Part shown: piece after piece, positions 1,055 through 36,806 of the stretch
Position numbering within the stretch: the stretch's first letter is position 1
How the letters are laid out: the number at the start of each line of letters is the position of its first letter
Notes under the pieces: model-generated
Told to the model about the DNA's origin: nothing
Seen by the model: the letters and a program-made list of their open reading frames with translations, nothing else
Database searches by the model: none
Program-made: the position numbers and the translations under genes
Assembly (NCBI GenBank): GCA_015062385.1
Contig: SUUT01000002.1
Location: 465-64,464 of the forward strand
Direction of reading: 5' to 3'
DNA: 64,000 nucleotides
Origin: Alphaproteobacteria bacterium
GTDB taxonomy: Bacteria; Pseudomonadota; Alphaproteobacteria; CAAHEQ01; UBA3637

Positions 1055-1476
1055 ATTGAACCAACGGTTCTCGTCAAGGCTAACGCCTTTAATTTACAAA
1101 AAAACCTCCCCAAAAGGAGGCTTTTTGTGAATGGCTGGGATATCAGGATTGCTCGGACAAAAATGTCCTCGTCTTCGGAATATCTTCCTCAGACCGTCCT
1201 ACGGACGTCTACTCGCACAGGCTCGTGACCGACCAACGGTTCTCGTCAAGGCTAACGCCTTCAATTCACAAAAAAACTTCCCCAAAAGGAGGCTTTTTGT
1301 GAATGGCTGGGATACCAGGATTGCTCGGACAAAAATGTCCTCGTCTTCGGAATATCTTCCTCAGACCGTCCTACGGACGTCCACTCGCACAGGCTCGTGA
1401 CCGAACCAACGGTTCTCGTCAAGGCTAACGCCTTCAATTCACAAAAAAACCTCCCCAAAAGGAGGCTTTTTGTGAA
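1055..1476. repeat. Tandem array of ~172-173 bp units (one truncated plus two full) 3' of tRNA-Gln; each full unit carries a copy of the tRNA 3' end and a terminator hairpin
   Basis: Full units are 1132-1303 and 1304-1476, with a truncated unit at ~1055-1131. Each full unit starts with tggctgggata(t/c)cagga, the complement of the last 17-18 nt of the tRNA. Each ends with the A-run/cctcc-ggagg hairpin/T-run. Confidence 0.9.
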
Positions 1477-1550
1477 TGGCTGGGATACCAGGACTCGAAC
1501 CTAGACTGACGGAATCAGAATCCGCTGTCCTACCATTAGACGATATCCCA
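1477..1550 (-). tRNA. tRNA-Gln (anticodon CUG), CCA encoded
   Basis: The reverse complement folds as a cloverleaf: acceptor TGGGATA/TATCCCA, anticodon arm GCGGA-TTCTGAT-TCCGT, T arm CTAGG-TTCGAGT-CCTGG, 3' GCCA. Length is 74 nt. Confidence 0.9.
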
Positions 1551-1568
1551 TTTAATTCTGATTTGTTT

Positions 1569-1597
1569 AATATATCCTTCTTTTCTTTAAATTGCAA
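1569..1597 (-). promoter_or_regulatory. Sigma70-type promoter of tRNA-Gln
   Basis: The minus strand reads TTGCAA-17 nt-TATATT, ending ~18 nt upstream of the tRNA 5' end. Confidence 0.55.
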
Positions 1598-1695
1598 GCC
1601 TTTTTTTTAAGTTGATTGTTTTTTCTAAAATATTTGTTTGAATGAATGATTTTTATTCAGATAAAGTCTTTTCCATTGATATGTATTTTTATCTT

Positions 1696-2769
1696 TTATT
1701 TAATGTATCGTCGCTCATAACGGGAAGCATGTCCTAAATTGTTTAATACTTCATACCCGATTGTTTTGCAATCGGCCCCAAAAGCATCTAAATCGTAAAA
1801 ATCATCAATTAACGTCATATATTGCGTATTGTTTAAGATGTTTTCCGGTATGTTGCTGACGTCACACATAATGTTATCCATAGAAACACGTCCGATAACG
1901 GGGGCTTTGAATATCGTATGTTCTGCCTGAATGCGTAATGCTCCGTTTTCTTGAAAATTTCTGAAAATGCCGTCAGCATAACCGATTGAAACTGTCGCAA
2001 TTTTTGTGGGGCGTTTAACCGTATAAGTTGCACTATACCCGACTGTTTCACCGGCTTGAACCGTTTTTATCTGCAAAATCGGAGCCGTTATTTTTACACA
2101 GTTCTTGACCTTTTTTTCTTCGTAAGGGGTTGTGTTAATGCCGTATAAAGCAGCACCAAGCCGCACCATATCAAAATGAAAATCTCGGCCTAAAAAAACA
2201 CCGTCCGAAGCACTTAATGAAAAGGGTGTATTCGGAAACACTGATTTAAATTGAAGGAGGGTGTTTTTTTGCTTTTCATTTAAATAGTGTTGGCATTCAT
2301 CAGCACAAGCCAGATGTGACAAAATCAAAGAAACAGGTAAATGAGCAATCTGTTTCGCCTCGTTTAAATCCAATCCCAAACGGTGTAAACCCGTTTCAAC
2401 CTGAATAGCCGGATGTTGCATATTTGCTGGATTTTTAAACCAATTATCAATAGCAAGTTGTGTTGGTAAAACCGGAATTAAATCAGCTTGCTGAAAAAAT
2501 GAACGTTCTTCTTCTCCAAATCCTTGTAAAACATAGATGCAACTGTTAGGAGCGACCTGTTTTAATTGTTGTCCTTCGCATCCGTAAGCAACAAAAAATG
2601 TATGACATCCATGGTCGTATAAAGCCCGACCGATTTGTTCAATTCCCAATCCGTAAGCATTGTTTTTTAACACACAAGTAGCGGTTATCGGATGAATATG
2701 ATTTTTGATAAACGTATAATTTTCACAAATAGTGGTTAAATTGATTTCCATTATCGGGCGTGTGTACAT
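1696..2769 (-). CDS. alr: Alanine racemase
   Basis: PLP-lysine motif region VLKNNAYGLG, and family-typical length and C-terminal motifs (VSMDNIMCDV, GYEVLNNLG). Confidence 0.85.
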   Translation of the reverse strand: MYTRPIMEINLTTICENYTFIKNHIHPITATCVLKNNAYGLGIEQIGRALYDHGCHTFFVAYGCEGQQLKQVAPNSCIYVLQGFGEEERSFFQQADLIPVLPTQLAIDNWFKNPANMQHPAIQVETGLHRLGLDLNEAKQIAHLPVSLILSHLACADECQHYLNEKQKNTLLQFKSVFPNTPFSLSASDGVFLGRDFHFDMVRLGAALYGINTTPYEEKKVKNCVKITAPILQIKTVQAGETVGYSATYTVKRPTKIATVSIGYADGIFRNFQENGALRIQAEHTIFKAPVIGRVSMDNIMCDVSNIPENILNNTQYMTLIDDFYDLDAFGADCKTIGYEVLNNLGHASRYERRYIK

Positions 2770-2811
2770 GATTTTGTTTCCTGTTATTTTGTTTGCATGA
2801 ATGGGGTTTTG

Positions 2812-4074
2812 CTAAATAAGTGTTCCAGTTTCTGTATGTAAGATGTTGTCACTGTATGTGTCAACTAGCTGTTGTGGAATTTGTTGTATTTCTGGACTTA
2901 CATTATCTGTAATTAAATTATTTTCTACCGATTTTAATTTGCGATTAACTGCTCTTGTCCGTCGTTCTGCTTCATCCAGTGTTTTGTGAGCTAGTTCAAT
3001 GTTTTTCTTTACCTTTTCTACCCAACCGGCATATTTTTCAAATTCAACTTTTACCTCGTTTAAAATTTGCCAGACTTCACCGGAACGTTTTTGAATAGCA
3101 AGTGTTCTGAATCCCATTTGTAAAGAATTTAAAAACGCCCCCAGTGTGCTGGGACCAGCAATGGATACCCGATATTTGTTTTGAATATCGGCAGCAATTC
3201 CCGGACGACGCATAATTTCGGCATATAAGCCTTCCGTCGGTAAAAACATAATGGCAAAATCGGTTGTTTTAGGGGGATAAATATATTTATCTGCAATCCG
3301 TTTTGCTTCCAATTTAATGCGTTTTTCTAATTCGTTTCCTGCTGTTTCAATGGCATTAATGTTTCCGTTATCTGTGGCCGTAATTAAGCGTTCATAATCT
3401 TCAATCGGAAATTTTGAATCAATCGGAATCAAAACGTCGCCATCCGGTAATTTTACGGCATATTCTACCACTTCTTGCACATTTTCTTTAATATGAGCAT
3501 TTTTAATAAATTGTTCGGCAGAAAGCATTTGTTCCAATAGTGCTCCCAGTTGAACTTCTCCCCAAGTACCACGGGCTTTTACGTTGGTTAAAACACGTTT
3601 TAATCCACCGACATCCGATGCCAGTGATTGCATTTCGCCTAATCCCTGATGAACTTTTTCCAGTCGTTCCGAAACCAAAGAAAATGATTCGCTAATTCGT
3701 TTTTCCAACGTATCATGTAGTTTTTCATCAACGGTTGAACGCATTTGCTCTAATTTCGTGGTGTTTTCCGTTCGCATTTGATCCATTTTGTTTTCAACGG
3801 TTTGTCGCATTTGATTTAAATTTAACGTGTTTTCGTTTCGCATCATATCAATGCGGTCAGATACACTTTTGCGAACGGAATCGTTAAATTGCAAAAGAGA
3901 TTGTCCCAATTCCTGGCGTAAACGCATGGATTCTTCCCGATTAAGGGCTTCTAAACGGGCTAAATCAGACGACATGTTGTTTTTTGATAAGTTCAGTTGC
4001 ATTAACTTGACGGTTAATAAAATAATAAACAGTGTCATAATGCCTAAAAAACCGAGAATAAAATAAAGTTCCAT
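2812..4074 (-). CDS. rmuC: DNA recombination protein RmuC
   Basis: N-terminal TM helix, a long coiled-coil, and a conserved RmuC C-terminal region (GTWGEVQLGALLE, FAIMFLPTEGLYAE). Confidence 0.85.
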   Translation of the reverse strand: MELYFILGFLGIMTLFIILLTVKLMQLNLSKNNMSSDLARLEALNREESMRLRQELGQSLLQFNDSVRKSVSDRIDMMRNENTLNLNQMRQTVENKMDQMRTENTTKLEQMRSTVDEKLHDTLEKRISESFSLVSERLEKVHQGLGEMQSLASDVGGLKRVLTNVKARGTWGEVQLGALLEQMLSAEQFIKNAHIKENVQEVVEYAVKLPDGDVLIPIDSKFPIEDYERLITATDNGNINAIETAGNELEKRIKLEAKRIADKYIYPPKTTDFAIMFLPTEGLYAEIMRRPGIAADIQNKYRVSIAGPSTLGAFLNSLQMGFRTLAIQKRSGEVWQILNEVKVEFEKYAGWVEKVKKNIELAHKTLDEAERRTRAVNRKLKSVENNLITDNVSPEIQQIPQQLVDTYSDNILHTETGTLI

Positions 4075-4133
4075 AAAAATATCCTTTGCAATTTACATCC
4101 AATTTTCGTATAGTGTAGCAAAAGGATTTTAAA

Positions 4134-4838
4134 ATGAAAGTTTTTTTTGCACTTTTTATGATTTTTTTTACAATTCCTGTTTTGGCGACCCAATATCAGG
4201 TAAAATATGTTGCAACCGGTTTAGGAATGGATTTGTTAACGGCCGATATGGTAATTGATATGACAAATACCGATTATACTATTCAAACAAATTCGGTTGC
4301 AAAAGGTATTTTATCGTTATTTATTCATAACAAAACCGCTTTTTATACAAAAGGAAAAATAGAAGGAAGTCGTCTGACGGTTTTAGAATCGTCTATGAAA
4401 AATACAGATGGTAAAAAAACGGATAAAACCATTTGGAATTTTGATGAAAAACAGGGATTTATAGATTATCAATCAGTTTTAATTCATTTAATGCGTTTAC
4501 AGAAAAATGGAACACAAGCCATTCGGGTAACAGATGGGAAACGGGATATGCTCATCACATTGACGGATGAGGGACAACGTAATTTAACGCAAATTCATCC
4601 GAATTTATCGGGAGAAGGGCAGGCTTATTCCGTTCGAATAAAAATTACAGGTGGCAAAAAAAGCGGATGGTTTTTTAAACGGATTCAAGAAGAAAAAATA
4701 TCACCGATGTGGTTATATATGCAAAAAGAAGAAAACGGACATTCTTTGGTGTTAAGTACTTTTGACACGGGTGTTATCGGACAATTATATATCATCCGAA
4801 AGGAATTTAAAAATGAAAAAAATCAGTCAAAAAATTAA
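4134..4838 (+). CDS. Secreted hypothetical protein (possibly DUF3108-like)
   Basis: N-terminal signal peptide (FFALFMIFFTIPVLA). No recognisable catalytic motif. The family assignment is only a resemblance. Confidence 0.35.
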   Translation: MKVFFALFMIFFTIPVLATQYQVKYVATGLGMDLLTADMVIDMTNTDYTIQTNSVAKGILSLFIHNKTAFYTKGKIEGSRLTVLESSMKNTDGKKTDKTIWNFDEKQGFIDYQSVLIHLMRLQKNGTQAIRVTDGKRDMLITLTDEGQRNLTQIHPNLSGEGQAYSVRIKITGGKKSGWFFKRIQEEKISPMWLYMQKEENGHSLVLSTFDTGVIGQLYIIRKEFKNEKNQSKN

Positions 4839-5487
4839 TTGGTTTTTAGGATTAATCAAATGGCCGATAGCTGTTTTAATGCTTGTGGCTTTGGTTCCTG
4901 CTTTTCAGGCAGATTTGTTCTTGCTTGAAAAATCAATGACTTCAAAAATGTTGTGGGAGTTTTGGTTGCCATTTGCCGTAACTGTACTGTTTTTTTTGAT
5001 TATGCCGGATTTAGGTGGTTCGTTTTTTACTATTGCCGAACATGAATTAACACATATGCTGTTTGCCGTTTTAACATTTCATAAACCAAAAGGATTAGAT
5101 ATTGAACAAGGAGTTGGGGGTTATTTTTCCTTTGAAGGGGAGGGTAATTGGTTGGTGGCATTAGCCCCATATTTTTTCCCGACATTTACGGTTGCATTGA
5201 TGCTGGGTTTTGGAATATATCAGCAGTTTGAACCGAAATTGCCTGATTTTTGGTTAATTTTATTCGGTGTTTTTATCGGTTATCATTTTATTGTGACATT
5301 GTTTGAAATTCATCCGAAGCAAACAGATTTTATTGTTGCCGGTCCGATTTTTACAATTTGTTTTATCCCAACGGCCAACTTGTTAATGTATGGGATGTTA
5401 TTGGCTTATATATTAAAGGGATGGGTTGGGATTCCGGCTTACTTTTTGTTGATTTTACAACAAGGGCAGAGATTGTTAGGATTGTAA
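4813..5487 (+). CDS. Polytopic membrane protein with an HExxH motif (putative M50-like membrane metalloprotease)
   Basis: Several predicted TM helices and an AEHELTHMLFA motif. The start is moved to MKKISQK (4813), which overlaps the upstream gene end, rather than the track start of 4762. Confidence 0.45.
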   Translation: MKKISQKINWFLGLIKWPIAVLMLVALVPAFQADLFLLEKSMTSKMLWEFWLPFAVTVLFFLIMPDLGGSFFTIAEHELTHMLFAVLTFHKPKGLDIEQGVGGYFSFEGEGNWLVALAPYFFPTFTVALMLGFGIYQQFEPKLPDFWLILFGVFIGYHFIVTLFEIHPKQTDFIVAGPIFTICFIPTANLLMYGMLLAYILKGWVGIPAYFLLILQQGQRLLGL

Positions 5488-5582
5488 ACAGAAAAAAACA
5501 GCAAAAAAGTGATATTGTTCTTGATTTTTAAAATGAAATAGAGTACTTTATTTCCCGTTGATTATTAGTAAAGGAGTTTTTT

Positions 5583-7349
5583 ATGCATCAATATCGTACA
5601 CATACTTGTGGAGCCTTGCGTTCAGTAGACGAAGGGCAGATTGTTCGTTTATCAGGATGGGTTCATCGCAAACGGGATCATGGAAATTTATTATTTGTTG
5701 ATTTGCGGGATAATTACGGCATTACACAGTGTGTGTTAGATACATCAGCTACTTCATTTGAATTGTTGGAAAAGGTACATCCGGAATCTGTTATTCGTAT
5801 TGATGGAAAGGTCATTTTAAGAACAAAAGAAACGGTTAATCCCAAAATGCCGACCGGCGAAATTGAAGTGTTGGTTGAAAACGCCGAAGTGCTTTCAGAA
5901 GCGGATGTTTTACCGATGCAGGTTGTTGCCAATACGGAAGATTTGTCCGAAGAACACCGTTTAACTTATCGCTTTTTGGATTTACGTCGTGAAAAACCAC
6001 ATGCGAATATTTTATTACGGAACAACTTTATTCGGGCTTGTCGTGAAAAAATGTGGGCTGCCGGATTTAATGAATTTCAAACACCGATTTTAACATCATC
6101 ATCTCCGGAAGGGGCTCGTGACTTTTTGGTTCCGTCTCGATTACATGCCGGTAAATTTTATGCTTTACCGCAAGCACCACAACAATTTAAACAATTATTG
6201 ATGGTTTCCGGTTTTGACAGATATTTTCAAATTGCCCCGTGTTTCCGTGATGAAGATGCTCGTGCAGATCGTTCTCCGGGGGAATTTTATCAATTAGATA
6301 TAGAAATGTCTTTTGTTACACAAGCTGAAATTTTTGCAACGGTTGAGCCGATTATCCACGATTTATTTGTTGAATTTGCACCGAATGCTGATGTTTCAGG
6401 TATGCCGTTTATTCAAATTCCGTATAAAACATCTATGATAAAATACGGAACGGACAAACCGGATTTAAGAAATCCGTTGATTATTGAAGATGTATCGGAA
6501 ATTTTTGCCGGATCATCTTTCGGCTTGTTTGCAAAACAAGTTGAAACAGGTGGATTTGTGCGAGCAATCAAAACAACAGGAACGGCATCACGTCCACGCA
6601 GTTGGTTTGATAAAATGAACGGGTTTGCCGTTGAAGCCGGTATGGGCGGATTAGGGTATATTTCTATTGCCGAAGAAGGAAATAAAGGTCCGATTGCCAA
6701 AAATTTAGATGCTGATCGTATTCAAGCCTTGTTTGAAAAAGTCGGAGCCAAAACAGGTGACAGTATTTTCTTTGTTTGTGGTAAAGGTGAAAAAACAGCT
6801 AAATTTACGGGACAGGTTCGTACGTTGTTAGGCGAAGAATTGCAATTGATTGATAAAAATCAATTTAAATTCTGTTGGATTACGGATTTCCCGTTCTATG
6901 AGCAAAATGAAGAGACGGGAGCGATTGAATTTTCACACAATCCGTTCTCAATGCCACAGGGCGAAATGGAAGCGTTAACAACCAAAAATCCGTTAGATAT
7001 TTATGCTTATCAATTTGATATGGTTTGTAACGGATATGAAATTTTATCAGGTGCTATTCGAAATCACCGTCCGGATATTATGTACAAGGCATTTGAAATT
7101 GCCGGTTATGGTCCGGAAGTCGTGGAACAAAAATTTGCCGGTATGTTAAATGCCTTTAAATACGGTGCTCCTCCTCACGGTGGTTGTGCTTTTGGTATTG
7201 ACAGGTTGGTTATGTTATTAACGGATGAATATTATATTCGTGAAGTAATTGCTTTCCCATTGACACAGCAAGGTGTTGATTTAATGATGAAAGCTCCGTC
7301 AAATGTGACAGAAAAACAATTACGGGAATTGCATATTAAGTTACGTTAA
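5583..7349 (+). CDS. aspS: Aspartate--tRNA ligase
   Basis: Class IIb aaRS: OB-fold N-terminus ([22 protein letters not shown]), motif 2 [19 protein letters not shown], motif 3 [12 protein letters not shown], and a bacterial insertion domain. Confidence 0.95.
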
Positions 7350-7373
7350 TAATGCTTTAATGTTTTAGAAAAA

Positions 7374-7409
7374 ACGGCAGTTGAAAAAATTCAGTTGCCG
7401 TTTTTTTTG
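7374..7409 (+). terminator. Intrinsic terminator after aspS
   Basis: Hairpin acggca...tgccgt followed by T8, with an A-run upstream, so it is probably bidirectional. Confidence 0.6.
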
Positions 7410-7429
7410 TTTTTTATATTTTGTTAATT

Positions 7430-7942
7430 TTAATTGTGTTTGTTTTCTAATACAGGGATAAAAAGTTTTACTCTTCCCGTAAAACAATTACAATTTGTAT
7501 CGTTTCCAAAACCAAAATGGCAATCTACATATATTTTATCACCGATTTTATGTAAAGGTTTTAATTCTAAGATGCCATAAAATAAATTGTTATCGATCTG
7601 TTTTTTAAATTTTACTTTTTCAAAATCTAAAATGTAAACCTTTCGTCTATTTTGATTAAAATAATCAGGTGTAATATTTTGATAAAAATCGAACATTTTT
7701 TCATTTATTCCACCAAGTAATTGCACATAAACCATTTGATTAAAACACATTAACGCTTCAATTGCATTAAAATGCCCAGAAGCAGGAGATAGATAGCAAG
7801 ATTCTTTAATTGAAAATGTTGCATTTAATTTGATAATATTATCTGATTGACTGATAGATGCAGTTGTTAAATATCGGGTGTTTTTTGCGGAATAAGTTAT
7901 TAAGGCTTTTTTTATAATTTCTTCTGATATAATTGTTTCCAT
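7430..7942 (-). CDS. Hypothetical protein, possible hotdog-fold (FcoT/AfsA-like) domain
   Basis: The SGHFNAIEALMCFNQMVY stretch resembles hotdog-fold thioesterase/dehydratase cores. The assignment is weak. Confidence 0.3.
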   Translation of the reverse strand: METIISEEIIKKALITYSAKNTRYLTTASISQSDNIIKLNATFSIKESCYLSPASGHFNAIEALMCFNQMVYVQLLGGINEKMFDFYQNITPDYFNQNRRKVYILDFEKVKFKKQIDNNLFYGILELKPLHKIGDKIYVDCHFGFGNDTNCNCFTGRVKLFIPVLENKHN

Positions 7943-7964
7943 AATTCAAAACTCCTTTTTTTTA

Positions 7965-8771
7965 CTATTCATGTGTTCGAGTATGGCTAATATTTTCCGT
8001 TGCTTGAACAGTCATTTGTCCTTTTTGAACCGTTGTGGGGTGGGATATTGTTTCCTGTTTTTTATCTGATTTATCTGAACAGGTATAAAGCAATGCAAAA
8101 GTTGCTAAACCGATTCCAATACGGAATAACCAAAATTTTGCTTTTTCTTTTTTACCTTCCGGTGTTAAGAATCTTTCTGTTACACCGCCTTCAAAATGTT
8201 TCATTTCATAAGTGTATTTATCTACTAATTGTATCATTCTGGCATTCATAAGTGGAGAAATTTGTTGACCTTTTTTATCAAAAAGCGTTGAGCCTAATTG
8301 ATTTTTAAGAATGATACAATCAGGTACATCCGGATGAATTTCAAAATTTTCTGTTAAAGCAAATAATTCTCCATTTCGTGTGCTGACCGCCAAAGCTGAT
8401 TGTGGAGAAAATTTTTCAATAACAAAATGTTTGGTTTGAATGGTTGAATTTTTACCGACAGAAGTGTACATTTGAGCATAAAGAGCATCTTCTGTATTTA
8501 ATGAAATATACAATTGATACGTTCCGTCCGGTTCTTGGTTAATTTTATAATCGGTTGCGTAGTGACTTTGAATTGAGCATCCGTTTACATCATAAAATTG
8601 TGTAAAAGAATTGGGCTTTAAATTATTTTTTACCTGAAAGAAGGGGGCATTATTATCTAATACTTCACATGTTAAATCTTCATTTGAATGAGCAGAAAAA
8701 ATAAGATTTCCTTTTTTATCACGAATAGTTTTGCCATTATCGGCAACATCAAAAAATTTATATGATTTCAT
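7965..8771 (-). CDS. Hypothetical protein with a C-terminal TM helix
   Basis: Long ORF with a hydrophobic segment FWLFRIGIGLATFALLY near the C-terminus. A predicted TTGACA-17-TATTAT promoter lies at plus 8801-8829. It is 22 nt upstream of the 7430..7942 gene, so the two are probably an operon. Confidence 0.5.
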   Translation of the reverse strand: MKSYKFFDVADNGKTIRDKKGNLIFSAHSNEDLTCEVLDNNAPFFQVKNNLKPNSFTQFYDVNGCSIQSHYATDYKINQEPDGTYQLYISLNTEDALYAQMYTSVGKNSTIQTKHFVIEKFSPQSALAVSTRNGELFALTENFEIHPDVPDCIILKNQLGSTLFDKKGQQISPLMNARMIQLVDKYTYEMKHFEGGVTERFLTPEGKKEKAKFWLFRIGIGLATFALLYTCSDKSDKKQETISHPTTVQKGQMTVQATENISHTRTHE

Positions 8772-8921
8772 ATTCCCATCCTTTCAGTTAATTTTTTTGT
8801 ATAATACCCATTTTTTAAGATTTTGTCAAATATTTTTTAATAAAAATGTAGGTCTTTATAAGATTGATAAAGAATGATTTTTATTAATTGTTTTAAGTGG
8901 AATTCAGGATGTTTGTGCAGT

Positions 8922-9699
8922 TGGTTGCGGGGGTGGGATTTGGAAATTCCCAAAATGATGAACATTTTGGGTCCCTTTCAGCTCGTAGGGCTTACATGTC
9001 GCAAGCTCGTGTTTGCCAACTATCGCTTGAACCGTCACGACCTCCTTGTCGGTCGTGAGGTTAATCCCGACCCCCATAAATAAAAAAAACACCCTTTCGG
9101 GTGCCTTTTTAATTTTGGTTGCGGGGGTGGAATTTGTAAATTCCCAAAATGACAAGCATTTTGGGTCCCTTTCAGCCCGTAAGGCTCACACATCGCAAGC
9201 TCGTGTTTGCCAACTATCGCTTGAACCGTCACGACCTCCTTGTCGGTCGTGAGGTTAATCTCGACCCCCATAAATAAAAAAAACACCCTTTCGGGTGCCT
9301 TTTTAATTTTGGTTGCGGGGGTGGGATTTGGAAATTCCCAAAATGATGAACATTTTGGGTCCCTTTCAGCTCGTAAGGCTCACACGTCGCAAGCTCGTGT
9401 TTGCCAACTATCGCTTGAACCGTCACGACCTCCTTGTCGGTCGTGAGGTTAATCCCGACCCCCATAAATAAAAAAAAACACCCTTTCGGGTGTCTTTTTA
9501 ATTTTGGTTGCGGGGGTGGGATTTGGAAATTCCCAAAATGATGAACATTTTGGGTCCCTTTCAGCCCGTAAGGCTCACACGTCACAAGCTCGTGTTCGCC
9601 AACTATCGCTTGAACCGTCACGACCTCCTTGTCGGTCGTGAGGTTAATCCCGCCCCCCATAAATAAAAAAAAACACCCTTTCGGGTGCCTTTTTAATTT
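8922..9699. repeat. Four tandem 194-195 bp structured units 3' of the initiator tRNA; each contains tRNA-derived segments and a terminator
   Basis: Units are 8922-9115, 9116-9309, 9310-9504 and 9505-9699. Each begins with tggttgcgggggtgg(g/a)atttg, the complement of the tRNA's last 21 nt. Each contains hairpins cccaaaatg/cattttggg and cacgacc/ggtcgtg and a sense-orientation T-arm-like ggtcgtgaggttaatccc(g)accccc. Each ends with A8-9/caccc-tttc-gggtg/T-run. Confidence 0.95.
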
Positions 9700-9777
9700 T
9701 GGTTGCGGGGGTGGGATTTGAACCTCACGACCTCCAGGTTATGAGCCTGGCAAGCTACCGGACTGCTCTACCCCGCG
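9700..9777 (-). tRNA. Initiator-type tRNA-Met (anticodon CAU), CCA encoded
   Basis: The reverse complement is CGCGGGG...CTCATAA...CCCCGCAACCA. It has a C1:A72 mismatch and an A11:U24 pair, both initiator hallmarks. Length is 78 nt, with an apparent extra A in the 5' strand of the T stem (GTGAGG vs CCCAC). Confidence 0.8.
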
Positions 9778-9790
9778 ATAGAATAAACAT

Positions 9791-9819
9791 AATATATTCC
9801 CTTTTTTTGTACTTGTCAA
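9791..9819 (-). promoter_or_regulatory. Sigma70-type promoter of the initiator tRNA
   Basis: The minus strand reads TTGACA-17 nt-TATATT, ~13 nt upstream of the tRNA 5' end. Confidence 0.6.
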
Positions 9820-13784: not shown

Positions 13785-14948
13785 ATGAAATTTTTTAAAT
13801 CAAATGAAAACGGGCGTTCAATGCTGGAAATACTGGGTGTATTGGCTGTTATAGGGGTGTTGAGTATAGCCGGCATCAGCGGTTATAAATATGGGATAAC
13901 AAAATATCAGGTCAATGAGTTAATTTATGATATGAATATATTGGCACAGGATATACGCATCTATTTAGAAAAATCAGAGTATGAATTACCCGAAAATTTA
14001 ACACAAGTTCAATCACGAGTTGGTCAGATGTTAGAAGCTCGTTTATTGGAAAATGATTATTTTGAAATTGCTTTAAATAGTTTACCGCAATCGCTGTGTA
14101 AGGGATTATTAACATCCGGATGGACTTTGCCGATAGAAATTTATGTCGGCACGCAAAAATACAATGGGCAAAATTTATGTATATCAGAAACATCTCCTCG
14201 TTTTAGTTTTGTTTTTGCACCGTTTGAAACAAATTCTACGGATGGGATTTTGCCGTCTATACCGAAAAATGACCGGTGTGAGGCAGACAAGGGATGTTCA
14301 CAATGTGAATCTTGTAAAAATAATATTTGTGTTGTAACAAAACCATTAAAAATCGGTAATAACTGTTATGCCTGTGATACACGGGAAACAGTGCGAGCTA
14401 ATCAAGCACAATGTGATGCCTGTCCCAATCGGATATACACGAAAAGTATGTGGATTGAATATTGTTTGTTACCTGAGGATGTTGATGATTGTAGTGGAAA
14501 ACAGGGTTCAGCTTGTGATTTAGCGGATGGAAAAGAATATAAAGGCATGTGTATGAGTGGCAAGTGTGTAGATTTAGGAGTTTGTCCAAGTGGTGTGACC
14601 GGTGAAATGGCGAAAAATTGGTGTGCAACACAAGGAGGAACAGCCAGTGTTGCCGAATTATCGGCTTTGGCATCATCTATAACGGTAACTGCGGAAACAA
14701 CAAAATGTAAGTCATCTTCTACTTATTTAACTTATGCAACAAATCCGGTTTGTCCGTCAGAAGATGAATTATCTTTATATGCCGGAAAGGCAAGTCAGAC
14801 TACTTGTGGTAGTGGAGCCATCTGGACGGCAGAAACTGATAAAAGATATCCGGATTATTTTCAAGTCAATTTATCTAATGGAGATATTTTAAATTATAAT
14901 TATTATGTTTACACAGCAAAAGCATTTTGTAAAAACTTTTTGCCATAA
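13785..14948 (+). CDS. Modular type IV pilin-like protein with a Cys-rich, lectin-like C-terminal module (387 aa)
   Basis: Prepilin-type leader MKFFKSNENG|RSMLEILGVLAVIGVLSIAG with Glu at +5. The ~150-aa pilin-like module has a Cys pair (LCKGLL...NLCIS). The C-terminal part is Cys-rich, with CDACPNR and a NWCATQGG motif. Confidence 0.75.
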   Translation: MKFFKSNENGRSMLEILGVLAVIGVLSIAGISGYKYGITKYQVNELIYDMNILAQDIRIYLEKSEYELPENLTQVQSRVGQMLEARLLENDYFEIALNSLPQSLCKGLLTSGWTLPIEIYVGTQKYNGQNLCISETSPRFSFVFAPFETNSTDGILPSIPKNDRCEADKGCSQCESCKNNICVVTKPLKIGNNCYACDTRETVRANQAQCDACPNRIYTKSMWIEYCLLPEDVDDCSGKQGSACDLADGKEYKGMCMSGKCVDLGVCPSGVTGEMAKNWCATQGGTASVAELSALASSITVTAETTKCKSSSTYLTYATNPVCPSEDELSLYAGKASQTTCGSGAIWTAETDKRYPDYFQVNLSNGDILNYNYYVYTAKAFCKNFLP

Positions 14949-15493: not shown

Positions 15494-18400
15494 TTATTCA
15501 TTTTGATTATCTTGATTGTGTTGCTGTTGTTTTAATCTGAGATAGAAATCGGATATCGAACCGGAGTTTCTTTTTTTATAATCTTCATACATTTTTTTAG
15601 TTATTATGTCTGTTTTATAATAGTCAAAAACAGGCAAGACATTGTTTTTATAAATTAATCTCAAATGTTTTAAAAATTTAAGGTAGTTCGGATTTGTTTT
15701 GATTTCCTTTTGTTGTCCTAAATCGTTTAACATCTGATAAAATTCATTTTCTCGAATGATAAAGGAATCAGCACCTTTTACTTTCTTTTCAAATAGAACT
15801 TCATCATCGGTTATGGTAATTTTGTACCATGTTCTGCCGGATTTTGCAATGATTTGATTGTCTTGACAAAGCGTTGCCGGAATGGAAAAGTTTTCCTGTG
15901 CCGGAATTTTAGTTTTATCACAGTATTTATTCATGTACATCATTTGCTGTGCATAATAGTGATAAACGTCTTGAATGGATGGGTATGAAGAGGCTGCTTG
16001 TGGATATAAGTTATCGCTATTTACAAAATCAGTGTAAATTTTTATTAATTTTTGTCCTAATTCAGTGGCTTGATCTTCATTTTTCAGCCATTCATTTAAC
16101 ATATTCAAGATGTATTTAGGCGGTAAAATTGTTTTTGTTTTTAACAGTAAATCTTGAACAACAAATTTTGGACGTTTCTCATCTAATGAGATTTGATAAA
16201 CAAATTTTCCTCTTTTTTCATATAATACATTATCGGCACACAAAACGGGTGGTATATCAAAAGATATAATATCTTCTCCTTGAAAATAGTTGGGTTTGCC
16301 CATTTTTATTTGTTGATGTCTTAAATATGTTTTATATAAATAATTAAAGTGGGGTTTTTGCTCGCTTTCAATGTAGAAATTATCCGTTAAAAATACTCCT
16401 CGGATTTCAGAACATATTTCGGGGCGAATTGTATCTGATATTGTTCCTGTATAAAGCAATCTCGGTGTTTCAAATTTAATAGGGGATAAAATATCATTTA
16501 ATATTTCTATTGAATCGATATCATCTTCTTCATTGTTTTGTTGTATAATCGGAAGAATTCGGTTGTGTTTTCTTCCCCAAGAAGCAATCCTAACCACCGG
16601 TTGTCTTTTGCTGGCTGTTGTTTGAATGGGCGTTGTTGGTATAGGTTGTTGAACCGTTTTTTCGGTTTGAACAATTGTTTCTTCTTGTTGAATAATAGGT
16701 TTTTCGGATACAGCATCAGGCTGATTAATCGGAATATCTTCTTTATGTACAATGGATTCTTGCATTGGAACAGACTGTTCTTCGGATGAATCAAGAGCGA
16801 CTTTAACAGGAGTTGTCAATTCATCATTTGAAATAATCGGATTTTTAACCGGAAGATCTTCTTTTCTTTGCAAGTCCGTTGTTTTTTCTGTTATTTGTAT
16901 TAATTCTGATGTATGTTGAGTGGTTGTATCAAAAATCAACGGTAAATTTAAAGTTGTTAATTGCATTAAATAATATTCATCATAAGATTGTTCTAAATCA
17001 GATAAAATATCATTTAATTCAGTACGGGACATCGATTCAATCGTATTGTTGTATAGTTTTTCAAAAGTGATCGTGCTTGACAAATCAATTTTGTAGTATA
17101 TACCATTTTTACGGGCATAAATACAATTATCGCCACAATGAATTGCCGGTATATCAACAGTATTGTTTTTGCCTGTTAGAATTTGAGAAAATAAAGGTAA
17201 TTCACTATATACAGGCGGAACATTTTTGTGAATAAATTCATTGAGTAATTTAACGGATTTTGATTCATAATAAGGTGATGGTTTAAACAATTTTGATTTT
17301 TGCGGACGAGCTTTTCCGATATAGGTATGCGTTCTGTAAAAGGCATTTTTTAATGTACTGATATTTATCTTTTTCAAATATCTATATATTTGATTTTTGG
17401 CAACATCCTGTAATATCCGATGAAATTCTTCTGCCGTCATATCTCGAATAACGCCGTTTTCCAAAACATCAAATGTCGGTGTTTCGGAGATGGTTATTCG
17501 GTAATAATTATTGTTATATTTTGCACAGAGCAAATTACCACTGCAAATATGTGTAATAATATCTTCTTCGGGTTCTATATGTTGTAATTGTGCTGATAAT
17601 TTTTGTTCTTCTTCAATTTGCTCAAAACGAGGGAATGTATAAATCGGATTTTTACGATTGTTTTTCTTTGCAAAAAATCCTTTGTATAAATTGGGTAATA
17701 TTCGTAATATTTTTTGACTTAATTCCGGATATGGTTTTAATGCTTCCGTTAAAATAGTTTTGACGTCTTCATACGGAATATGCCGTTGCTGTTTATTTAA
17801 AATATTACGAACGGAAAAGAATACATCACCGGAACGCAATGAAATAATATAATGATAAATCCCTTTTTTATAGTGAATCCGGTCGTCATTTGCCCAAACA
17901 GCCGGCATATCAAACGCATGATTTTCTTCATCTTTTAAATCAGGATTGTTGTTTTGAATAGCTCGTTTTAATGTTTCAATCCGAATTTGAGCATCAAAAT
18001 TAAAAGAATTCAGATTGTATTGATAGAATTCTGCTACTGCTGAATGACTGATATGTGTTGGGAATAAAGCCTTTTTTAATTCCTCAATATCATCATTTTC
18101 AAACATTTTGGGTTGATATTCGTACGGATTAAAATCATTTTTTTGTAATTCGCTCAAAATTTGGCGACTGCGTGTTTCCCGATTGGGTACTGTATAAGGT
18201 GTGGGTAAAATAATGTTTTCTGCTGTCCGGTTGAATTGTTCGGCAAAAAGAGACTGTTCCTTAAATGCTTTTTTTAAGTGTCTCATACTGATTTTATGTT
18301 GTATTTTACGTTCGTAAATGCCATTTAAAATCAGGTTAAATTCGTCTGCTGTTATTGAGCGGATTTGATTGTTTTCCAATGCTTCAAACGTTATCGGTTC

Positions 18401-21400
18401 TTTTATTTTGATTTTGTAATAAATTTGATTGTATCGGGCATAAATGATATTTCCGGCACATAAGCAGGGTAAAATAGTATCAGTTGGGATAGTCCCGTTT
18501 AATTGTGCCGTTAAATTGTCAAATTCTATTATCTGATCAAACCGGGGATAATCGGATTTTTGTGTTTTATATCGTTCGGGGCTAATCTGATATTTTTGAT
18601 ATAATTTATTCAGCATTTCAGATATTAGGCGGGTATCCGGATTATTTGCATCAAAATTATCGGTAATAAGTGTATTTAAATTTTCCACTTGGAAAAGAAT
18701 GGCTGTACCTGTTGCTTTTTTAAATTTAGAAAATGTCACATTTTTTTCATCTAACGAAAAAACATAATGATATTGATTGTCTAATGCATGTACTTTTCCA
18801 TCACTGCATAAAGTAGGGGGTAATATAATTTCATTTTCATCTTTTTGTGCAATTTTTTGCTTTAAAATCAAACTTTTTTGCAAAGTTAAAAAATCAGGAA
18901 AAGCAAATTCATCTTCAAAAAACGGTGTTGTTTCCTGCACGATATTTGTATCGTTTTTTGCTGTGTTTTTTATTGGGTTTAACGAACCGAAGATATTTTC
19001 GGTTTCATGTGTGCCTGCCTGTATTCCTGTTTCTTCGGATAATTGAACAATGTATTGTTGGATAGACGTTTGTTCTTGCTGATTGCTTACGAATGAATTA
19101 TTTGTTGCCGTATTGTCATACAAAACATTCAGAGGACGTTTATTTAGACCTAAATTATTTAATTTATAGCTTTTTATTGAGCGGAATAAATCGTTTATGA
19201 TTTTGTTTAATTCTGATTTTGTCATTCGCCGAATAATTCCGTTTTCCCAAGCTTCAAATACAGGGGATTCTTTATAGCGAAGTTTATAGAAAACATTATT
19301 GTATCGAGCCAAAATGGTGTTGTTTTCACATAAAACAGGCAAAATATCGCTTTGGGTATCTTGATTATTGAGTTCCAGTTGTTTTTCGGCTAATAAGAGA
19401 GCTTGTTTTAAAGATGGTTGTAAATGTTTGCTTTCCGGAGAAATAAAGTGTTGCGACATATAAGCTGTTGCAAATCGTGCCAATACAGTGTGTCCTGTTT
19501 CGATGTCGTTTTTAAAGATATCTAATACTGTTTTTTTTATAATAAACGGTGACATAATTCTATATGCTCTTGTTTTGATATCTTTTTCCAAAAATGAAGG
19601 GCGTTTTAAGTCTAAAGAAATATAGTACAGTTTTCGACCGTCTTTCCAATGTAAAAAATTATCCGGTGTAATAATCGGTTCATAAGAATATAATTGATTT
19701 TTTTCATCAAACAAATTAGGATTATGTGTTTCAATCGCATGCGTTAATGATTGAATTTGTTGATGATAGTAGGGATTGATTTGTAAAGTGTTTTCTTCTA
19801 AAAATGAATTTAAATTAAGAGATGAACCATAATTTATCGTTATTTTCGATTGTTGTTCAGTTAAAATTTCTTGTCGATTTTGAGCGGGAAAGCGTGTTTC
19901 AAATTCATATTCAAGGGAATGCTTGTTATTAAAATCAAGCAATTCAATAATTGGTGTATATTGAATTGATTCCGGAATTGTAAACACTGGTGTTTGTTGT
20001 TTGTTAATTTGTTGGAAATACTTGCTCTTTAACCCGTTTGCTTTTGTTTCTTGTAAAACCGGTTGATGATAAGTTCCTAATAATTCCTGATTGATTTTTT
20101 GAATTTCATCGGCATTCATCGGACGGATTTGACCGTTTTGTAATGCGGTAAATGTGAGGGTGGGGGATAATGTTATTTTGTATAAAACATTTCCTTTTTT
20201 TGCAATAATAATATTACCGGCACAAATGGTTGCCGAAATATCTGATAATTTTTCAGATGTTTGATTCAAATAATTAAATACTAAAACTTGTTTTGCCGTA
20301 GGCCAAGAACGCTTGTTGTTTCTGGCTCGAACTGATTGTGTCGTAAGTGATTTATACGCTTTTTGAAATTGCCGGATAATACTTTTTTTGTTTGATACAT
20401 TTGGAACAATGGTATTTAAAACTGTTTCAAAATCTGCAACAGGTATTTTTTTATTTGTACCATCTGCTACTTCTACTCGGTAATAAGGCATATTTAAGTC
20501 AAGGGAAATAATATATTTTTTTCCGTTTGCCGATGTATATAAGCAGTCATTTTGAGCAATATATGTTGTATTTATCGGTTGATAAATCTTTGTTGCGAGA
20601 TGGTGTTTTAAAGCTGTCTGTTCAATTTTTTCCTGATAACGGTTATCCGGTCGCAATTTGATGCTTTCTTGCCAAAAAGCGAGTGCTTGTCGAATTTCAT
20701 CTTCCTGTGTTTGTGGTGCAGAATATTGAATCGTACTTTCTGCTATTGTTTGGTGGGTTAAAGACGGAATTGTTTCTTCTTTTGAATGCGTAACCATTGA
20801 GTCTGTTAAAGCTGATTTAATAATTTGTTCAGATGAAGGTGTGGTTGCTTTATTGGTTTCAGAAGAGACTGTTTGTAATGGTACGGTTTTTAAAGCTGCG
20901 TGCAAATCGTTTGCAAAAGATAATGTTTGTTGGTTTGTTTGTTCTTGTTGCTCAAAAAATTTCTGTTGGGGGGATACGGTCTTTCCGTATCGTTCCAAAA
21001 GGGCATTTGCACCTGCTTTCATTAAATAAACGGCATTATATCGTTCGCTTAAATACCGACTGATAAATCGGACTTCATTTAATGTCATTTGACGGATTTT
21101 TCCATCTTGGTAAACACCGTATGACGGGGCTCCGTCTAATGTGATTTTATAAAAGGCATTTCCGTATTTTGCCATAATAATTTGATTAGCACAAATAATC
21201 GGATTGATATTTTGCAAAACTGTTTTTTCGGCAAGTAAACTTTGGTATTTTGCCGTTTCGATTACTTGTTGAACGGAAGGAAGTTGTTTTGCCTCTCGTT
21301 TTCTTTTATGCTTAATTTTGGAATAATATAATTTCTCAAAAAATTGTATGTATTTTTGGCACAGATGTGAATCCGGTATTACTTTTGTCAGAATTTGTTG

Positions 21401-24799: not shown

Positions 24800-25297
24800 T
24801 TAAAAAAGTGTCTGATGATTTTTAAATAGAGTAATTATTTCGCTATGATGATTGTCTTTTGCAATATCAAGAGCTGTTAAGCCGTCATTATCTTTAATGT
24901 TTATATCGGCACCCGCACTTAACAACAGTCGAATAATATCGGTTCTGTTTGTAACGGTGGCTGTAATAAGTGCAGTTCCTCCGTCATTGTCAATGGCATT
25001 CACATCAGCATGGGCATTAATTAATTCTTGAACAATTGCAGTATGACCATTAAATGTTGCCGTCATTAAGGGGGTCCAGCCATCATCTTGCATGTTAACG
25101 TCTGCTCCGGCATCAATCAGTGTTTTGACAATATCCAAATTTCCGTGTTGAATGGCAATGAGTAGAATAGGGGTCTCATTTTCATCCCGTGCATTCACAT
25201 CAGCACCGGCATTAATAGCTGATTTTGCGGCATATAAATATTTTTTATGAATGGAATTAATTAATTCTTTTGTCGCTTTTTCATTAGTTTTTGTCAT
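24800..25297 (-). CDS. Ankyrin-repeat protein
   Basis: Four to five canonical ANK repeats (G.TPL..A...G...IV..L...GADVN). Confidence 0.9.
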   Translation of the reverse strand: MTKTNEKATKELINSIHKKYLYAAKSAINAGADVNARDENETPILLIAIQHGNLDIVKTLIDAGADVNMQDDGWTPLMTATFNGHTAIVQELINAHADVNAIDNDGGTALITATVTNRTDIIRLLLSAGADINIKDNDGLTALDIAKDNHHSEIITLFKNHQTLF

Positions 25298-34037: not shown

Positions 34038-36806
34038 ATGAAAATCAAATTCAATGAACTTGGTCGGAGTATGCTGGAAACGTTGTGCGTATTAGCTGTT
34101 ATCGGGGTATTAAGTGTTTCTGGTATTAGTGGATATCAATATGCAATGACTAAATATCAAACGAATGATATTATTAATTCTGTTAATATGCGTTCTTCGG
34201 ATATTTGGCATCGATATCAGCAAATTCCTCTTCCCAATGAAGAAACAAATGCTTTTCCGGAGTGGGAAACAAAAACATCAACCGGTTTTCCGATTATGAT
34301 AACATCTCATCCTGATGTAGCATTTCGCATTATTGTTGATGAAGTGCCGGAGCGGATTTGTAAAGATGTTTTAAATATGCATTTAAATGATTATGTTAAA
34401 GGGTTAAAGTTTGTTCAGGTTAATGATGTTAAATATATTAACAGTAATAACATTTGTTTATCCGATAGATTAAACAAAATTGTGTTTACTTCTTTTTTAA
34501 ATGTTGATGGTGGTTATAATCCAAACACAAATGGTATGAATAATGCTGAACCGTGTGTAGAAGATGCTGATTGTCATTCAAAATGTGCTGAAAAAATATG
34601 TAATTCCGAAACAATGATTTGTGATGATCAGTGTCCGGAATGGAATAAACCGGTACGCTTGGAAGAAACATGCGAATGTGTAGAGTGTGTTAAGAATAGT
34701 GATTGTAAATTTAAAGGAGATGGATATATTTGCAATGAGTTGGAATATAAATGCAGTAAACTGGAAAAACAATGCAAATCGAATCAATTCCGTACTCAAA
34801 ACGGAGCTTGTATTGATTGTGATAATGGCAGTAATTTTATTGTTTTGAAAGATGGAGAACCTTATCCGTTTACAAGTGATACGGTTGATGGTTATACAAT
34901 GTGTCAACAATGTGCTAATTCGGGAACTGAACGGCAATATGGAGCATTGATTGATGATGAAACAAAGGCGTATTGCTCGTTTATGTGTACTGCCGGATAT
35001 TCATATCAATCATTAAAAGACGGATGTGTATCTTGTGCCGATGAAACACCAAAATTCATTGCAAAAGACGATGTTTCAAAAAAACAATGTACATCTTGTC
35101 CTAACCATGCTTGGTATAGTGAGTATTGGTTTGATTATTATAATAAAGCAGTTCTTTGTCAAAAAAAGGTTGTTTGTGGAGATGATGAATTTGTGACAAC
35201 TGTGCGTGCTTCACATTATACCTGTGCAAAATGCAATTCTTCACGGAGTGCAAATGTTGGTGTTGGACATTATACAGCCGGTTATTCTGATAGTAAATTT
35301 TATCAATATCGTATTGATAAATGTAATAGTTGTCCGGAAAGGGATAGTGACGGAAATTATTCGGCTCGTTGGTTTGTTGGTAATGGAAACAGTGGTTCGT
35401 GTGCTCCTAAATGTGAACAACCTATCACAGGCAGTGAAGCTGACACAATTTGTAAAACAAATCCGTCAAGTGAAAAGTGTAAAAGAAAATGGCAAAATGC
35501 ATCAGGAACTTGTTTTGATTGCGATGCGGAAACAACATCCAATAATATAAAATATGGGACATCAGGAGCACAAGCAACCGATGCGGAATTAAAAAGACTT
35601 TGTTTGGCATGCGGACGAGAAGTGCAGGGCAATTATTGTATTTTACCCAAAACGAAAGATATTTGCGGAGTCGGCAAATTTTTAGGAAAAGATGGAAACT
35701 GTTATTTATGTAATAATGAAACACATGTTGAAATCGAATCAGATGCATTGTCCGGTTGTTTGAGTAATTGTAAAAAAAGTTCTGCAACAGCAACTGATTA
35801 TGTTTTAAACGGAACAGTTGATACTCGTCGTGTTTATACAATGAATGATCTTAATTATTGTGCTTTAAAGTGTTCTGACAATCAAATAAATCAAAGTGAC
35901 GGAAAATGTGTATCTTGTGGTAATCAAAATTCATTAAATACCATTACACCGGCGGTTGTGGGTGATTGCAATCTTTGTCAGTATAGAGAAATTTATGGCA
36001 ATGTTTGTGCCGTAAAAACATGTCCAACTTCATATTACAAGAATCATTCGGGGACTTGTAAGAAATGTTCCGAGCAAAATCCCGAACAGGAAACTTGGTC
36101 GAATGAATTAATACTTGGGGATATTAATTCATGCAATACCTGTGGTAACAGAATAGCTATTAAACGATATAATACAGATACAGGATTTTGGTGTACATAT
36201 ATTAATCCGGGGCAAATTGGTCTATGCAACAGTAAAGGAAATCAAGCACTTCCGGTAACAATGAATGAAACTCTTGTTGAAGCTGCTCAACCATATATAA
36301 ATTCACAACATGACGGTGAAAAATTTAGAGATCATTATGGATATTGTCGGAATTGTACGGATAGTGCTGATTATATTGCTGATGAAGAACAATGTTTATC
36401 ATGTAAAAATAGAAGATGGAGCAACAATACATGTATGAAAGGTCTGTGTGAAGAAAAATTACAGTTTTTATCCGGTTCATCTTGCTTGTCATGCTCTAAT
36501 GTTAATAAACCAATTGATCCGAGTAAGGATAACTTATGTTCCTCTTGTGAAAATAGACGTCAATTAGAAATCGGCACACCGGATACAACTTGGTCAGGAC
36601 TTTGTGTGGAAGAGTGTACGGGGACACAATGGCAGGATATTGATGGAAATTGCTTGTTCTGTTCTGAAGGAGGGGATAGAGCAATTGGAACAGATACAGA
36701 ATCTCGTCGTTTATGTAATGATGTTTGTAAAGATTATCGTCAGGAGGAAGCAATTTATTCGGCAGATGGCAAAACGGTAATCGGATATAAATGTGTTGAA
36801 AAATAG
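34038..36806 (+). CDS. Modular type IV pilin-like protein with a very large Cys-rich C-terminal region (922 aa)
   Basis: Leader MKIKFNELG|RSMLETLCVLAVIGVLSVSG. A pilin-like module with Cys pair ICKDVL...NICLS. About 750 aa follow with many C-x2-C pairs (CTSCPNH, CNSCPER, CNTCGNR, CLSCKNR, CSSCENR). Confidence 0.75.
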   Translation: MKIKFNELGRSMLETLCVLAVIGVLSVSGISGYQYAMTKYQTNDIINSVNMRSSDIWHRYQQIPLPNEETNAFPEWETKTSTGFPIMITSHPDVAFRIIVDEVPERICKDVLNMHLNDYVKGLKFVQVNDVKYINSNNICLSDRLNKIVFTSFLNVDGGYNPNTNGMNNAEPCVEDADCHSKCAEKICNSETMICDDQCPEWNKPVRLEETCECVECVKNSDCKFKGDGYICNELEYKCSKLEKQCKSNQFRTQNGACIDCDNGSNFIVLKDGEPYPFTSDTVDGYTMCQQCANSGTERQYGALIDDETKAYCSFMCTAGYSYQSLKDGCVSCADETPKFIAKDDVSKKQCTSCPNHAWYSEYWFDYYNKAVLCQKKVVCGDDEFVTTVRASHYTCAKCNSSRSANVGVGHYTAGYSDSKFYQYRIDKCNSCPERDSDGNYSARWFVGNGNSGSCAPKCEQPITGSEADTICKTNPSSEKCKRKWQNASGTCFDCDAETTSNNIKYGTSGAQATDAELKRLCLACGREVQGNYCILPKTKDICGVGKFLGKDGNCYLCNNETHVEIESDALSGCLSNCKKSSATATDYVLNGTVDTRRVYTMNDLNYCALKCSDNQINQSDGKCVSCGNQNSLNTITPAVVGDCNLCQYREIYGNVCAVKTCPTSYYKNHSGTCKKCSEQNPEQETWSNELILGDINSCNTCGNRIAIKRYNTDTGFWCTYINPGQIGLCNSKGNQALPVTMNETLVEAAQPYINSQHDGEKFRDHYGYCRNCTDSADYIADEEQCLSCKNRRWSNNTCMKGLCEEKLQFLSGSSCLSCSNVNKPIDPSKDNLCSSCENRRQLEIGTPDTTWSGLCVEECTGTQWQDIDGNCLFCSEGGDRAIGTDTESRRLCNDVCKDYRQEEAIYSADGKTVIGYKCVEK

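Follow-up and report, generated by a model that had tools for sequence, protein, structure and literature searches.

The tRNA-linked repeats (TLRs; Rfam class RtT) of Escherichia coli were reportedly described by Egan and Landy in 1978, downstream of tyrT, and by Rudd in 1999. A TLR is a structured element of 100-190 nt, oriented like the tRNA or 5S gene that it directly follows; its last 17-21 nt repeat this gene from the T-loop to the CCA, a copy of the gene's terminator often stands at its start, and one to five copies are present in tandem. Here, we compare this family with two tandem arrays located in a 64-kb window (the whole stretch of contig SUUT01000002.1 that was analysed, 64,000 nucleotides) of an uncultured gut alphaproteobacterium. 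One array follows the tRNA-Gln gene and the other follows the initiator tRNA gene (tRNA-fMet), and their repeats are called Gln units and Met units, respectively. The sequence is present in sequencing runs of gut metagenomes, faecal and sheep ones among them. We consider it probable that both arrays are TLRs, the Gln units with an E. coli-type core and the Met units with the outer frame only, and as such they are new, distant members of a known and still unexplained family. The comparison is built on the layout of the units, a model-based likeness of the Gln units to the E. coli core, the covarying structure of the family and copy numbers which differ between assemblies.

[quoted passage not shown] The TLRs have "thus far no known function" except for the 5S-linked RrA, RrB and RrF, whose binding partners are Hfq and CsrA; for the tRNA-linked TLRs, the CsrA-binding score lies below 0.01. 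A 1991 claim of a function of rtT was withdrawn in 1994, and the strain table of the same paper includes an E. coli strain deleted for all 22 TLRs (PMC8144298).

At the tyrT locus of E. coli, we find 3.1 copies of 178 nt, each closed by 19 nt of tRNA-Tyr starting from the T-loop, and the terminus of the array is the CCA; the annotated small RNA rttR ends at the copied CCA. Units extracted from behind five tRNA types (tyrT/V, serX, lysT-Q, argV-Q and proK) have one core in common, and a terminator copy opens those of serX, proK and lysQ. The consensus structure of the E. coli units consists of a closing stem formed by the complement of the tRNA block and the block itself, a folded-back T-arm hairpin, and the hairpins P3 (with an internal GA/GA loop), P4 and P5. 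Hairpin P6, which is variable in sequence, is modelled in the core-only model R3 (described below) and left out of the consensus used for pair counts. In a model alignment that also contains Gln unit 1 of the window, 90.7% of the cells of this family structure are paired as compared to 37-46% with slid partners, and both sides change in 16 of the 30 pairs. The Rfam model RtT (RF00391) covers the tyr, proK, lys and serX TLRs of E. coli at 46-137 bits. The region downstream of E. coli proK (L036:772-1100) contains 1.6 TLR copies, not one, and the second of them adjoins an element of the repetitive extragenic palindromic type (Rfam naRNA4 match).

Layout of the two arrays

The window has a G+C content of 35% and contains three tRNA genes, all on the minus strand, namely Gln(CTG), initiator Met and Phe (ARAGORN). 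Tandem Repeats Finder delimits the Gln array at 1058-1493 (period 172, 2.5 copies, 96% identity) and the fMet array at 8921-9720 (period 194, 4.1 copies, 95% identity). Like the E. coli TLRs, the repeats lie directly 3' of the tRNA in the same orientation, since both arrays begin within the tRNA gene and extend downstream on the tRNA strand, and they contain a folded-back copy of the T-arm. Their copy numbers, 2.5 and 4.1 in the window and 0-2 and 1-4 full units across assemblies, correspond to the one to five tandem copies present at an E. coli locus.

Read in tRNA orientation, each unit of both arrays consists of a terminator, a hairpin-rich stretch of 110-135 nt and a copy of the tRNA 3' end. 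The intrinsic terminator begins a few bases past the preceding CCA, and in this respect the window units are similar to those E. coli types which open with a terminator copy. The tRNA block is TCCTGGTATCCCAGCCA (17 nt, T-loop through CCA of tRNA-Gln) in the Gln units and CAAATCCCACCCCCGCAACCA (21 nt, T-loop through CCA of tRNA-fMet) in the Met units; the repeat and the upstream tRNA have identical 3' ends over these lengths, as is the case in the E. coli family. The terminus of the Met array is exactly the CCA at position 8922. The Gln array terminates 74 nt beyond a CCA, directly after GGTTC (position 1058), and the proK array of E. coli stops likewise, just past GGTTCGACTCGA. The features of the two arrays are the following (minus strand indicated by -).

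1477-1550 (-): tRNA-Gln (CTG), carrier of the first array (ARAGORN; Rfam tRNA, 60.4 bits)
1569-1597 (-): promoter-like site of tRNA-Gln, TTGCAA-17-TATATT (consensus scan; alone no proof of function)
1304-1476 (-): Gln unit 1, 173 nt; top match of the E. coli-only model R1 (1304-1427)
1443-1471 (-): terminator of Gln unit 1, with a hairpin at 1421-1434 and the folded-back T-arm copy at 1399-1420
1382-1399 (-): P3 of Gln unit 1, with P4 at 1364-1381, P5 with its insert at 1343-1366 and P6 at 1327-1340
1318-1326 (-): junction GAGCAATCC of Gln unit 1, with the tRNA block at 1304-1320
1323-1399 (-): TLR core of Gln unit 1, hairpins P3-P6; full-length match of the core-only E. coli model R3
1132-1303 (-): Gln unit 2, 172 nt, tRNA block with one change (TCCTGATATCCCAGCCA); matched by R1 and R3
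1058-1131 (-): partial third Gln unit (terminator, hairpin and folded-back copy), which stops after GGTTC
9700-9777 (-): initiator tRNA-Met (CAT), with a C1-A72 mismatch and an extra A in the T-stem (ARAGORN; Rfam)
9791-9819 (-): promoter-like site of tRNA-fMet, TTGACA-17-TATATT, 11/12 (consensus scan)
9505-9699 (-): Met unit 1, 195 nt
9310-9504 (-): Met unit 2, 195 nt
9470-9499 (-): terminator of Met unit 2, with the block complement at 9451-9464 and the folded-back T-arm hairpin at 9418-9450
9383-9399 (-): P3-like hairpin of Met unit 2, with hairpin A at 9368-9381, hairpin B at 9337-9359 and the tRNA block at 9310-9330
9116-9309 (-): Met unit 3, 194 nt; junction a perfect palindrome, GGAATTT-AC-AAATTCC, through two changes
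8922-9115 (-): Met unit 4, 194 nt; its CCA at 8922 is the end of the array

The initiator tRNA is 78 nt in length and its extra A lies in the 5' strand of the T-stem (GUG-A-GG / CCCAC). At the core/block junction of Met unit 3, GGGAATTTCCAAATCCC is converted by the two changes to the palindrome, and one of the changes alters the tRNA-identity block.

The units have a G+C content of 47-54% as compared to 20-28% in the adjacent intergenic DNA. A strong two-way terminator is present in every unit, while the consensus scan places promoter-like sites only upstream of the tRNAs and none inside the units. Both arrays separate the tRNA promoter from a co-directional downstream gene which has its own promoter (lexA in one case and a 268-aa gene in the other). 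Elsewhere in the 64-kb window, and in 184 kb taken from other loci of the organism and its relatives, no further copies of the units could be found. Both tRNA-Phe (46251-46326, minus strand) and tRNA-Thr, which lies just left of the window, are followed by a plain terminator and are free of units; arrays of like design are present at two of the four tRNAs seen in the organism (Gln and fMet, not Phe and Thr).

Open reading frames (ORFs) of 83-143 aa run through the arrays at 1131-1400 (+), 8904-9155, 9035-9286 and 9229-9660 (-) and were rejected as by-products of the repeats. The 143-aa ORF is called as a gene in JGI records; a parallel is the 29-aa tpr ORF annotated within the tyrT repeat of E. 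coli. A role of the plus strand as a primer-binding site or antisense RNA was dropped, the plus strand being promoterless, and its tRNA-complementary stretch is already accounted for by the sense copy of the tRNA.

Relation of the Gln and Met units to the E. coli core

The whole window was searched on both strands, with filters off, using a covariance model built from six E. coli TLRs only (R1). This model recovers the lys and arg TLRs of E. coli, which are outside its training set. Its top match in the window is Gln unit 1 (1304-1427; 21.3 bits, E = 0.0014), which is matched in full length, followed by Gln unit 2 (11.8 bits, E = 0.37) and then by matches of 11 bits or less. Another covariance model (R3) was built from ten E. 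coli cores after stripping all of the tRNA-derived columns, and only the cores of Gln unit 1 (1323-1399; 20.4 bits, E = 0.0067) and Gln unit 2 (1151-1227; 15.5 bits, E = 0.08) are matched with E < 1. The background maximum, in 84 kb of DNA from related metagenome-assembled genomes (MAGs), is 15.0 bits, about level with the second Gln match. The E-values of these models come from a shortened calibration and are rough. Because the E. coli-only models R1 and R3 detect them, the Gln units are assigned to the TLR family by covariance-model search, with a predicted core of the E. coli type.

In the E. coli TLRs and the Gln unit alike, hairpins P3-P6 and the junction which follows them are present in the same order. 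P3 reads CUC-GA-GC...GC-GA-GAG in E. coli and CAC-GA-GC...GC-GA-GUG in the Gln unit, i.e. the two differ by a compensatory pair. P4 is found in both, P5 reads CCC-GAA-GGG in E. coli and GUCU[14]AGAC in the Gln unit, and P6 is variable in sequence in either case. The junction CGAG-Y-AAUCC is common to the E. coli and the Gln units, and its AATCC in the Gln unit equals the E. coli consensus, while tRNA-Gln itself reads AGTCC at this place. The host is different, since the window belongs to an uncultured gut alphaproteobacterium of 35% G+C whereas the reports of TLRs that we found are all from Gammaproteobacteria.

The Met units share with the TLRs the closing stem, the folded-back T-arm copy and a P3-like motif, with no match to a TLR model. 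The Met unit contains additional copies of the T-arm, one antisense (GGGGGTCGGGATTAACCTCACGACC, z = 9.5) and one sense (GGAGGTCGTGACGGTTCAA, z = 8.8), and the same antisense T-arm copy is present in the tyrV unit of E. coli (z = 5.8). Because of these extra antisense and sense copies, the Met unit is read as a folded-back copy of the 3' third of the tRNA with about 85 nt inserted in the T-loop. In its minimum-energy fold, the block pairs with the block complement to form the closing stem; this predicted stem is the same outer frame as in the long TLRs of E. coli, around a core which would have diverged. The Met hairpin CACG-A-GC-UU-GC-GA-CGUG corresponds to P3. As judged from the sequence, the link of the Met units to the TLR family is suggested by the layout (closing stem, folded-back T-arm, block and terminator) together with this short hairpin motif.

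An earlier note on this DNA had aligned the Gln and Met units directly with each other over 60-70 nt, and the strings quoted there are present as written on the plus strand (Met at about 9361-9407, Gln at about 1355-1410). The formal alignment with shuffling that it proposed as a check places the Gln/Met similarity only marginally above chance, and the 60-70-nt alignment proves not to be robust. With strict gap costs, the best local alignment has 30 columns and p = 0.027-0.04 against dinucleotide shuffles, with p = 0.03-0.08 for the reverse-complement controls, and under four scoring schemes p ranges from 0.015 to 0.22 on the same strand and from 0.011 to 0.6 in the reverse-complement control. 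A global alignment of the hand-picked segments has 38 of 58 columns identical (p = 0.0002), with end points chosen post hoc. The blocks 'CAC..CGCA' and 'GCTCGTG', described as shared, are the two strands of one hairpin (P3). The motif CACGAGC-N2-4-GCGA (13-15 nt), which was picked after inspection, has 5 matches in the window, amounting to two independent occurrences, as compared to 0.01 expected, and a scan of the window finds it confined to the two arrays and the tRNA strand. The direct resemblance between the Gln and Met units appears to be limited to P3, and each of them shares a different subset of the E. coli TLR features. The design of a constant core plus a tRNA-matched end, which the note had put forward, is correct as a general idea and is that of the E. 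coli TLRs, where one core follows Tyr, Ser, Lys, Arg and Pro tRNAs as well as 5S rRNA. The Gln units match the E. coli TLR models and the Met units are left unmatched. Retargeting of one element to different tRNAs may be inferred from such a design, and no mobility mechanism was found.

Copy number, relatives and competing explanations

Among assemblies encoding identical neighbouring proteins, full Gln units number 0, 1 or 2 and Met units 1 to 4, with the proviso that short-read assemblies may collapse repeats; many contigs break within the Met array. Each unit adds 80-130 nt which are absent from the unrepeated form. The zero-unit form (assembly L041) retains the 74 nt of the partial third Gln unit, with the terminator and the folded-back segment, and fuses the first-unit variant of the terminator segment to the terminal junction. 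The structure of this junction fits unequal crossing-over. It seems plausible from the assembly forms that units are gained and lost through slippage, or through unequal homologous recombination, between the block-plus-terminator segments. The 5 Gln and 6 Met unit variants vary too little for a covariation test, and two stem changes in assembly L042, both C-to-U and yielding G-U pairs on the tRNA strand, are only suggestive. Relatives with 78-80% identity of the neighbouring proteins have Met-type units at the same place, where contigs break in the array and only the terminal units are visible. The nearest relatives in genome collections are human, mouse and other gut MAGs with a prs identity of 61-68%.

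By analogy with rttR and RrA/B/F of E. coli, it is possible that a fraction of the transcripts starting from the strong tRNA promoter reads past the first terminator. The tRNA-like 3' block might then let 3'-end processing (cleavage of the RNase E/G type plus trimming) free a stable structured RNA ending in CCA; a protein of the RNase E/G family is encoded in the window. RrA, RrB and RrF (E. coli rrnA, rrnB and rrnD) are similar to the window units in being structured elements between two terminators behind a strong stable-RNA gene, but the gene ahead of them is 5S rRNA, GGA motifs occur in them, and both CsrA and Hfq bind to them (PMC8144298). Small RNAs of the 3'ETS-leuZ type (PMC8144298) are likewise non-tRNA RNAs made from a tRNA transcript 3' of the CCA, which is only predicted for the window units; in contrast to these units, they are single, unrepeated spacers lacking a copy of the tRNA 3' end. 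More speculatively, the T-loop sequence flanking the cores (GGTTCGA / AATCC), which is nearly universal, might serve as a site of recombination through which a core reaches another tRNA.

Several observations weigh against the assignment of the arrays to the TLR family, in addition to the rough E-values, the high background of R3 and the possible collapse of repeats mentioned above. In contrast to the E. coli TLRs, the window units stay under the threshold of Rfam RtT and are not listed even at relaxed settings: RtT has no match in either array at the gathering threshold (45 bits) or at E up to 10, and under both settings Rfam returns only tRNAs for the arrays. An nhmmer profile of the E. coli TLRs has no match on the arrays, and a plain alignment of E. 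coli units with window units stays at the chance level. The Met units are matched by none of R1, R3 and R2, the latter of which includes a Gln unit. Structurally, the Gln unit differs from the E. coli TLRs in missing the 5' strand of the closing stem and in the 14-nt insert of P5, and the Met core is not recognisable as the same one. A strong terminator heads each unit and transcription of the units is predicted only; RNA runs sharing words with the region show only generic tRNA-fMet of other organisms. The relatives with 61-68% protein identity, compared through the synteny of prs, have no arrays and show plain loci of tRNA plus terminator. In a relative with 80% identity the terminal Met unit has lost its block and is drifting to A+T. 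The decayed unit and the array-free relatives fit weak or no selection on at least some of the copies.

The stretch from T-loop to CCA is a typical target of tRNA-directed tyrosine integrases. In L042 (3337-9296, corresponding to window position ~1477 between alr and lexA), an assembly which belongs to this or a closely related organism and encodes an identical LexA protein, the 3' end of tRNA-Gln is the insertion site of a 5.9-kb island. The island encodes a 648-aa protein with DUF6538 and Phage_integrase domains, two resolvases and an ankyrin protein, and is flanked by a 20-nt repeat, GAGTCCTGGTATCCCAGCCA; the Gln array follows at its far end. Because the island uses this stretch, the T-loop-to-CCA stretch of tRNA-Gln is a live attachment site. 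The units could accordingly be seen as scars or miniature satellites of tRNA-targeting integrative elements, made of attachment-site arms plus the block and served in trans by a tyrosine integrase. The same duplicated stretch, the position of the island at exactly this place, the related integrases lying ~90 nt downstream of tRNA-Val and tRNA-Ser elsewhere, the stop of the Met array exactly at the CCA and the variable copy number would all agree with such an origin. We rank this explanation second and consider it unlikely, since the arms of the L042 island on either side of the 20-nt repeat are unrelated to the unit core or terminator, five loci of related integrases beside tRNA-Val or tRNA-Ser have no tandem arrays in their 10-kb flanks, and no recombinase was found in the window or near tRNA-fMet. 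Moreover, 89-91 nt (the block plus 74 nt) are common to the Gln repeat and its flank, which is far above an attachment core and fits homologous recombination, a circle of 172-195 bp is an unlikely substrate for integration, and the core resembles the E. coli TLRs, a family that also has members behind 5S rRNA genes. The unit cores have no match in viral contigs (scanned with both cores, zero matches), phage records or plasmids, and the phage and plasmid BLAST returned only pieces of Salmonella chromosome with proK TLRs. A pattern scan of metagenomes for Gln-type cores gave four chance matches, on G+C-rich contigs without tRNAs, and did not return the organism's own contigs. A miniature inverted-repeat transposable element (MITE) or small transposon was rejected as well; the Met units have an inverted pair (block complement/block), and no dispersed copies exist in the 64 kb or in the 184 kb of other loci.

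Two simpler explanations have a lower standing. The arrays could be ordinary tandem duplications that arose downstream of each tRNA with no shared ancestry, their likeness being due to chance and to the tRNA sequence itself. This would suit the marginal Gln/Met similarity with its similarly scoring reverse-complement controls, the blank Rfam RtT and nhmmer searches, the close relatives whose arrays are absent or decaying, and the 95-96% identity of the unit copies, as after a recent duplication. We find it quite unlikely, given that the same design, starting in the T-loop in both cases, is present at two of four tRNAs and that the 80-130 nt of each unit which are absent from the unrepeated form cannot come from simple duplication of the flank. 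R3, deprived of tRNA columns, still ranks both Gln cores first in the 128 kb searched, and the unusual antisense-plus-sense T-arm copy is common to the Met unit and the E. coli TLRs. It is also conceivable that the repeated terminator is the selected feature, so that stacks of terminators shield lexA and the 268-aa gene from the strong tRNA promoters; the two-way terminator of each unit and the place of the arrays between tRNA promoter and independently promoted gene would agree with this, and the TLR of E. coli rrnB lies between the terminators T1 and T2 (PMC8144298). However, the conserved structured core and the tRNA block would be left unexplained, tRNA-Phe and tRNA-Thr manage with one terminator before co-directional genes, and zero- and one-unit forms exist, which makes this explanation very unlikely.

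Neighbouring genes and significance of the arrays

Three otherwise unannotated proteins of 387, 922 and 648 aa, encoded on the plus strand at 13785-14948, 34038-36806 and 52560-54506, have a near-identical N-terminus, NE(L/N)GRSM(L/V)E.LGVLA(V/I)IGVLS, reminiscent of a prepilin-type signal; the relative L011 has a similar N-terminus beside tRNA-Gln. An ORF of 2797 aa at 15494-23887 (-) has no Pfam match on record. Ankyrin-repeat proteins are encoded at 24800-25297 (-) and 57669-58580 (+), and also in L040 and L042, in keeping with a host-associated lifestyle. A 480-nt tandem repeat of 2.5 copies is located inside the gene beside lexA, immediately to the left of window position 1 (L040:11146-12355), and the length of this lexA-adjacent gene varies by assembly (763, 603 or 443 aa). 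An 85-aa ORF at 51961-52218 (+) has a faint match to an IS110-type transposase (DEDD_Tnp_IS110) and is possibly a transposase remnant.

For annotation, arrays of this kind matter in that they fragment short-read assemblies and give spurious ORF calls. Regarding the origin of the family, TLRs might be imagined as a horizontally spreading, retargetable element which is not vertically inherited and which settles behind stable-RNA genes by copying their T-loop-to-CCA end, for instance by T-loop recombination or through an unknown enzyme. We regard this proposal as doubtful; if true, such a spread would account for the presence of a G+C-rich core of the E. coli type in a gut alphaproteobacterium that is rich in A+T and has array-free relatives at 61-68% protein identity.

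With the two arrays read as TLRs, the features of the family which survive a very large divergence are the T-loop-to-CCA block, the folded-back T-arm copy, P3 with its GA/GA loop, P4-P6 and the CGAG-Y-AATCC junction. This set provides concrete targets for mutagenesis, and the retention of these features argues for a constraint on the structure of the TLRs or on the process that generates them.

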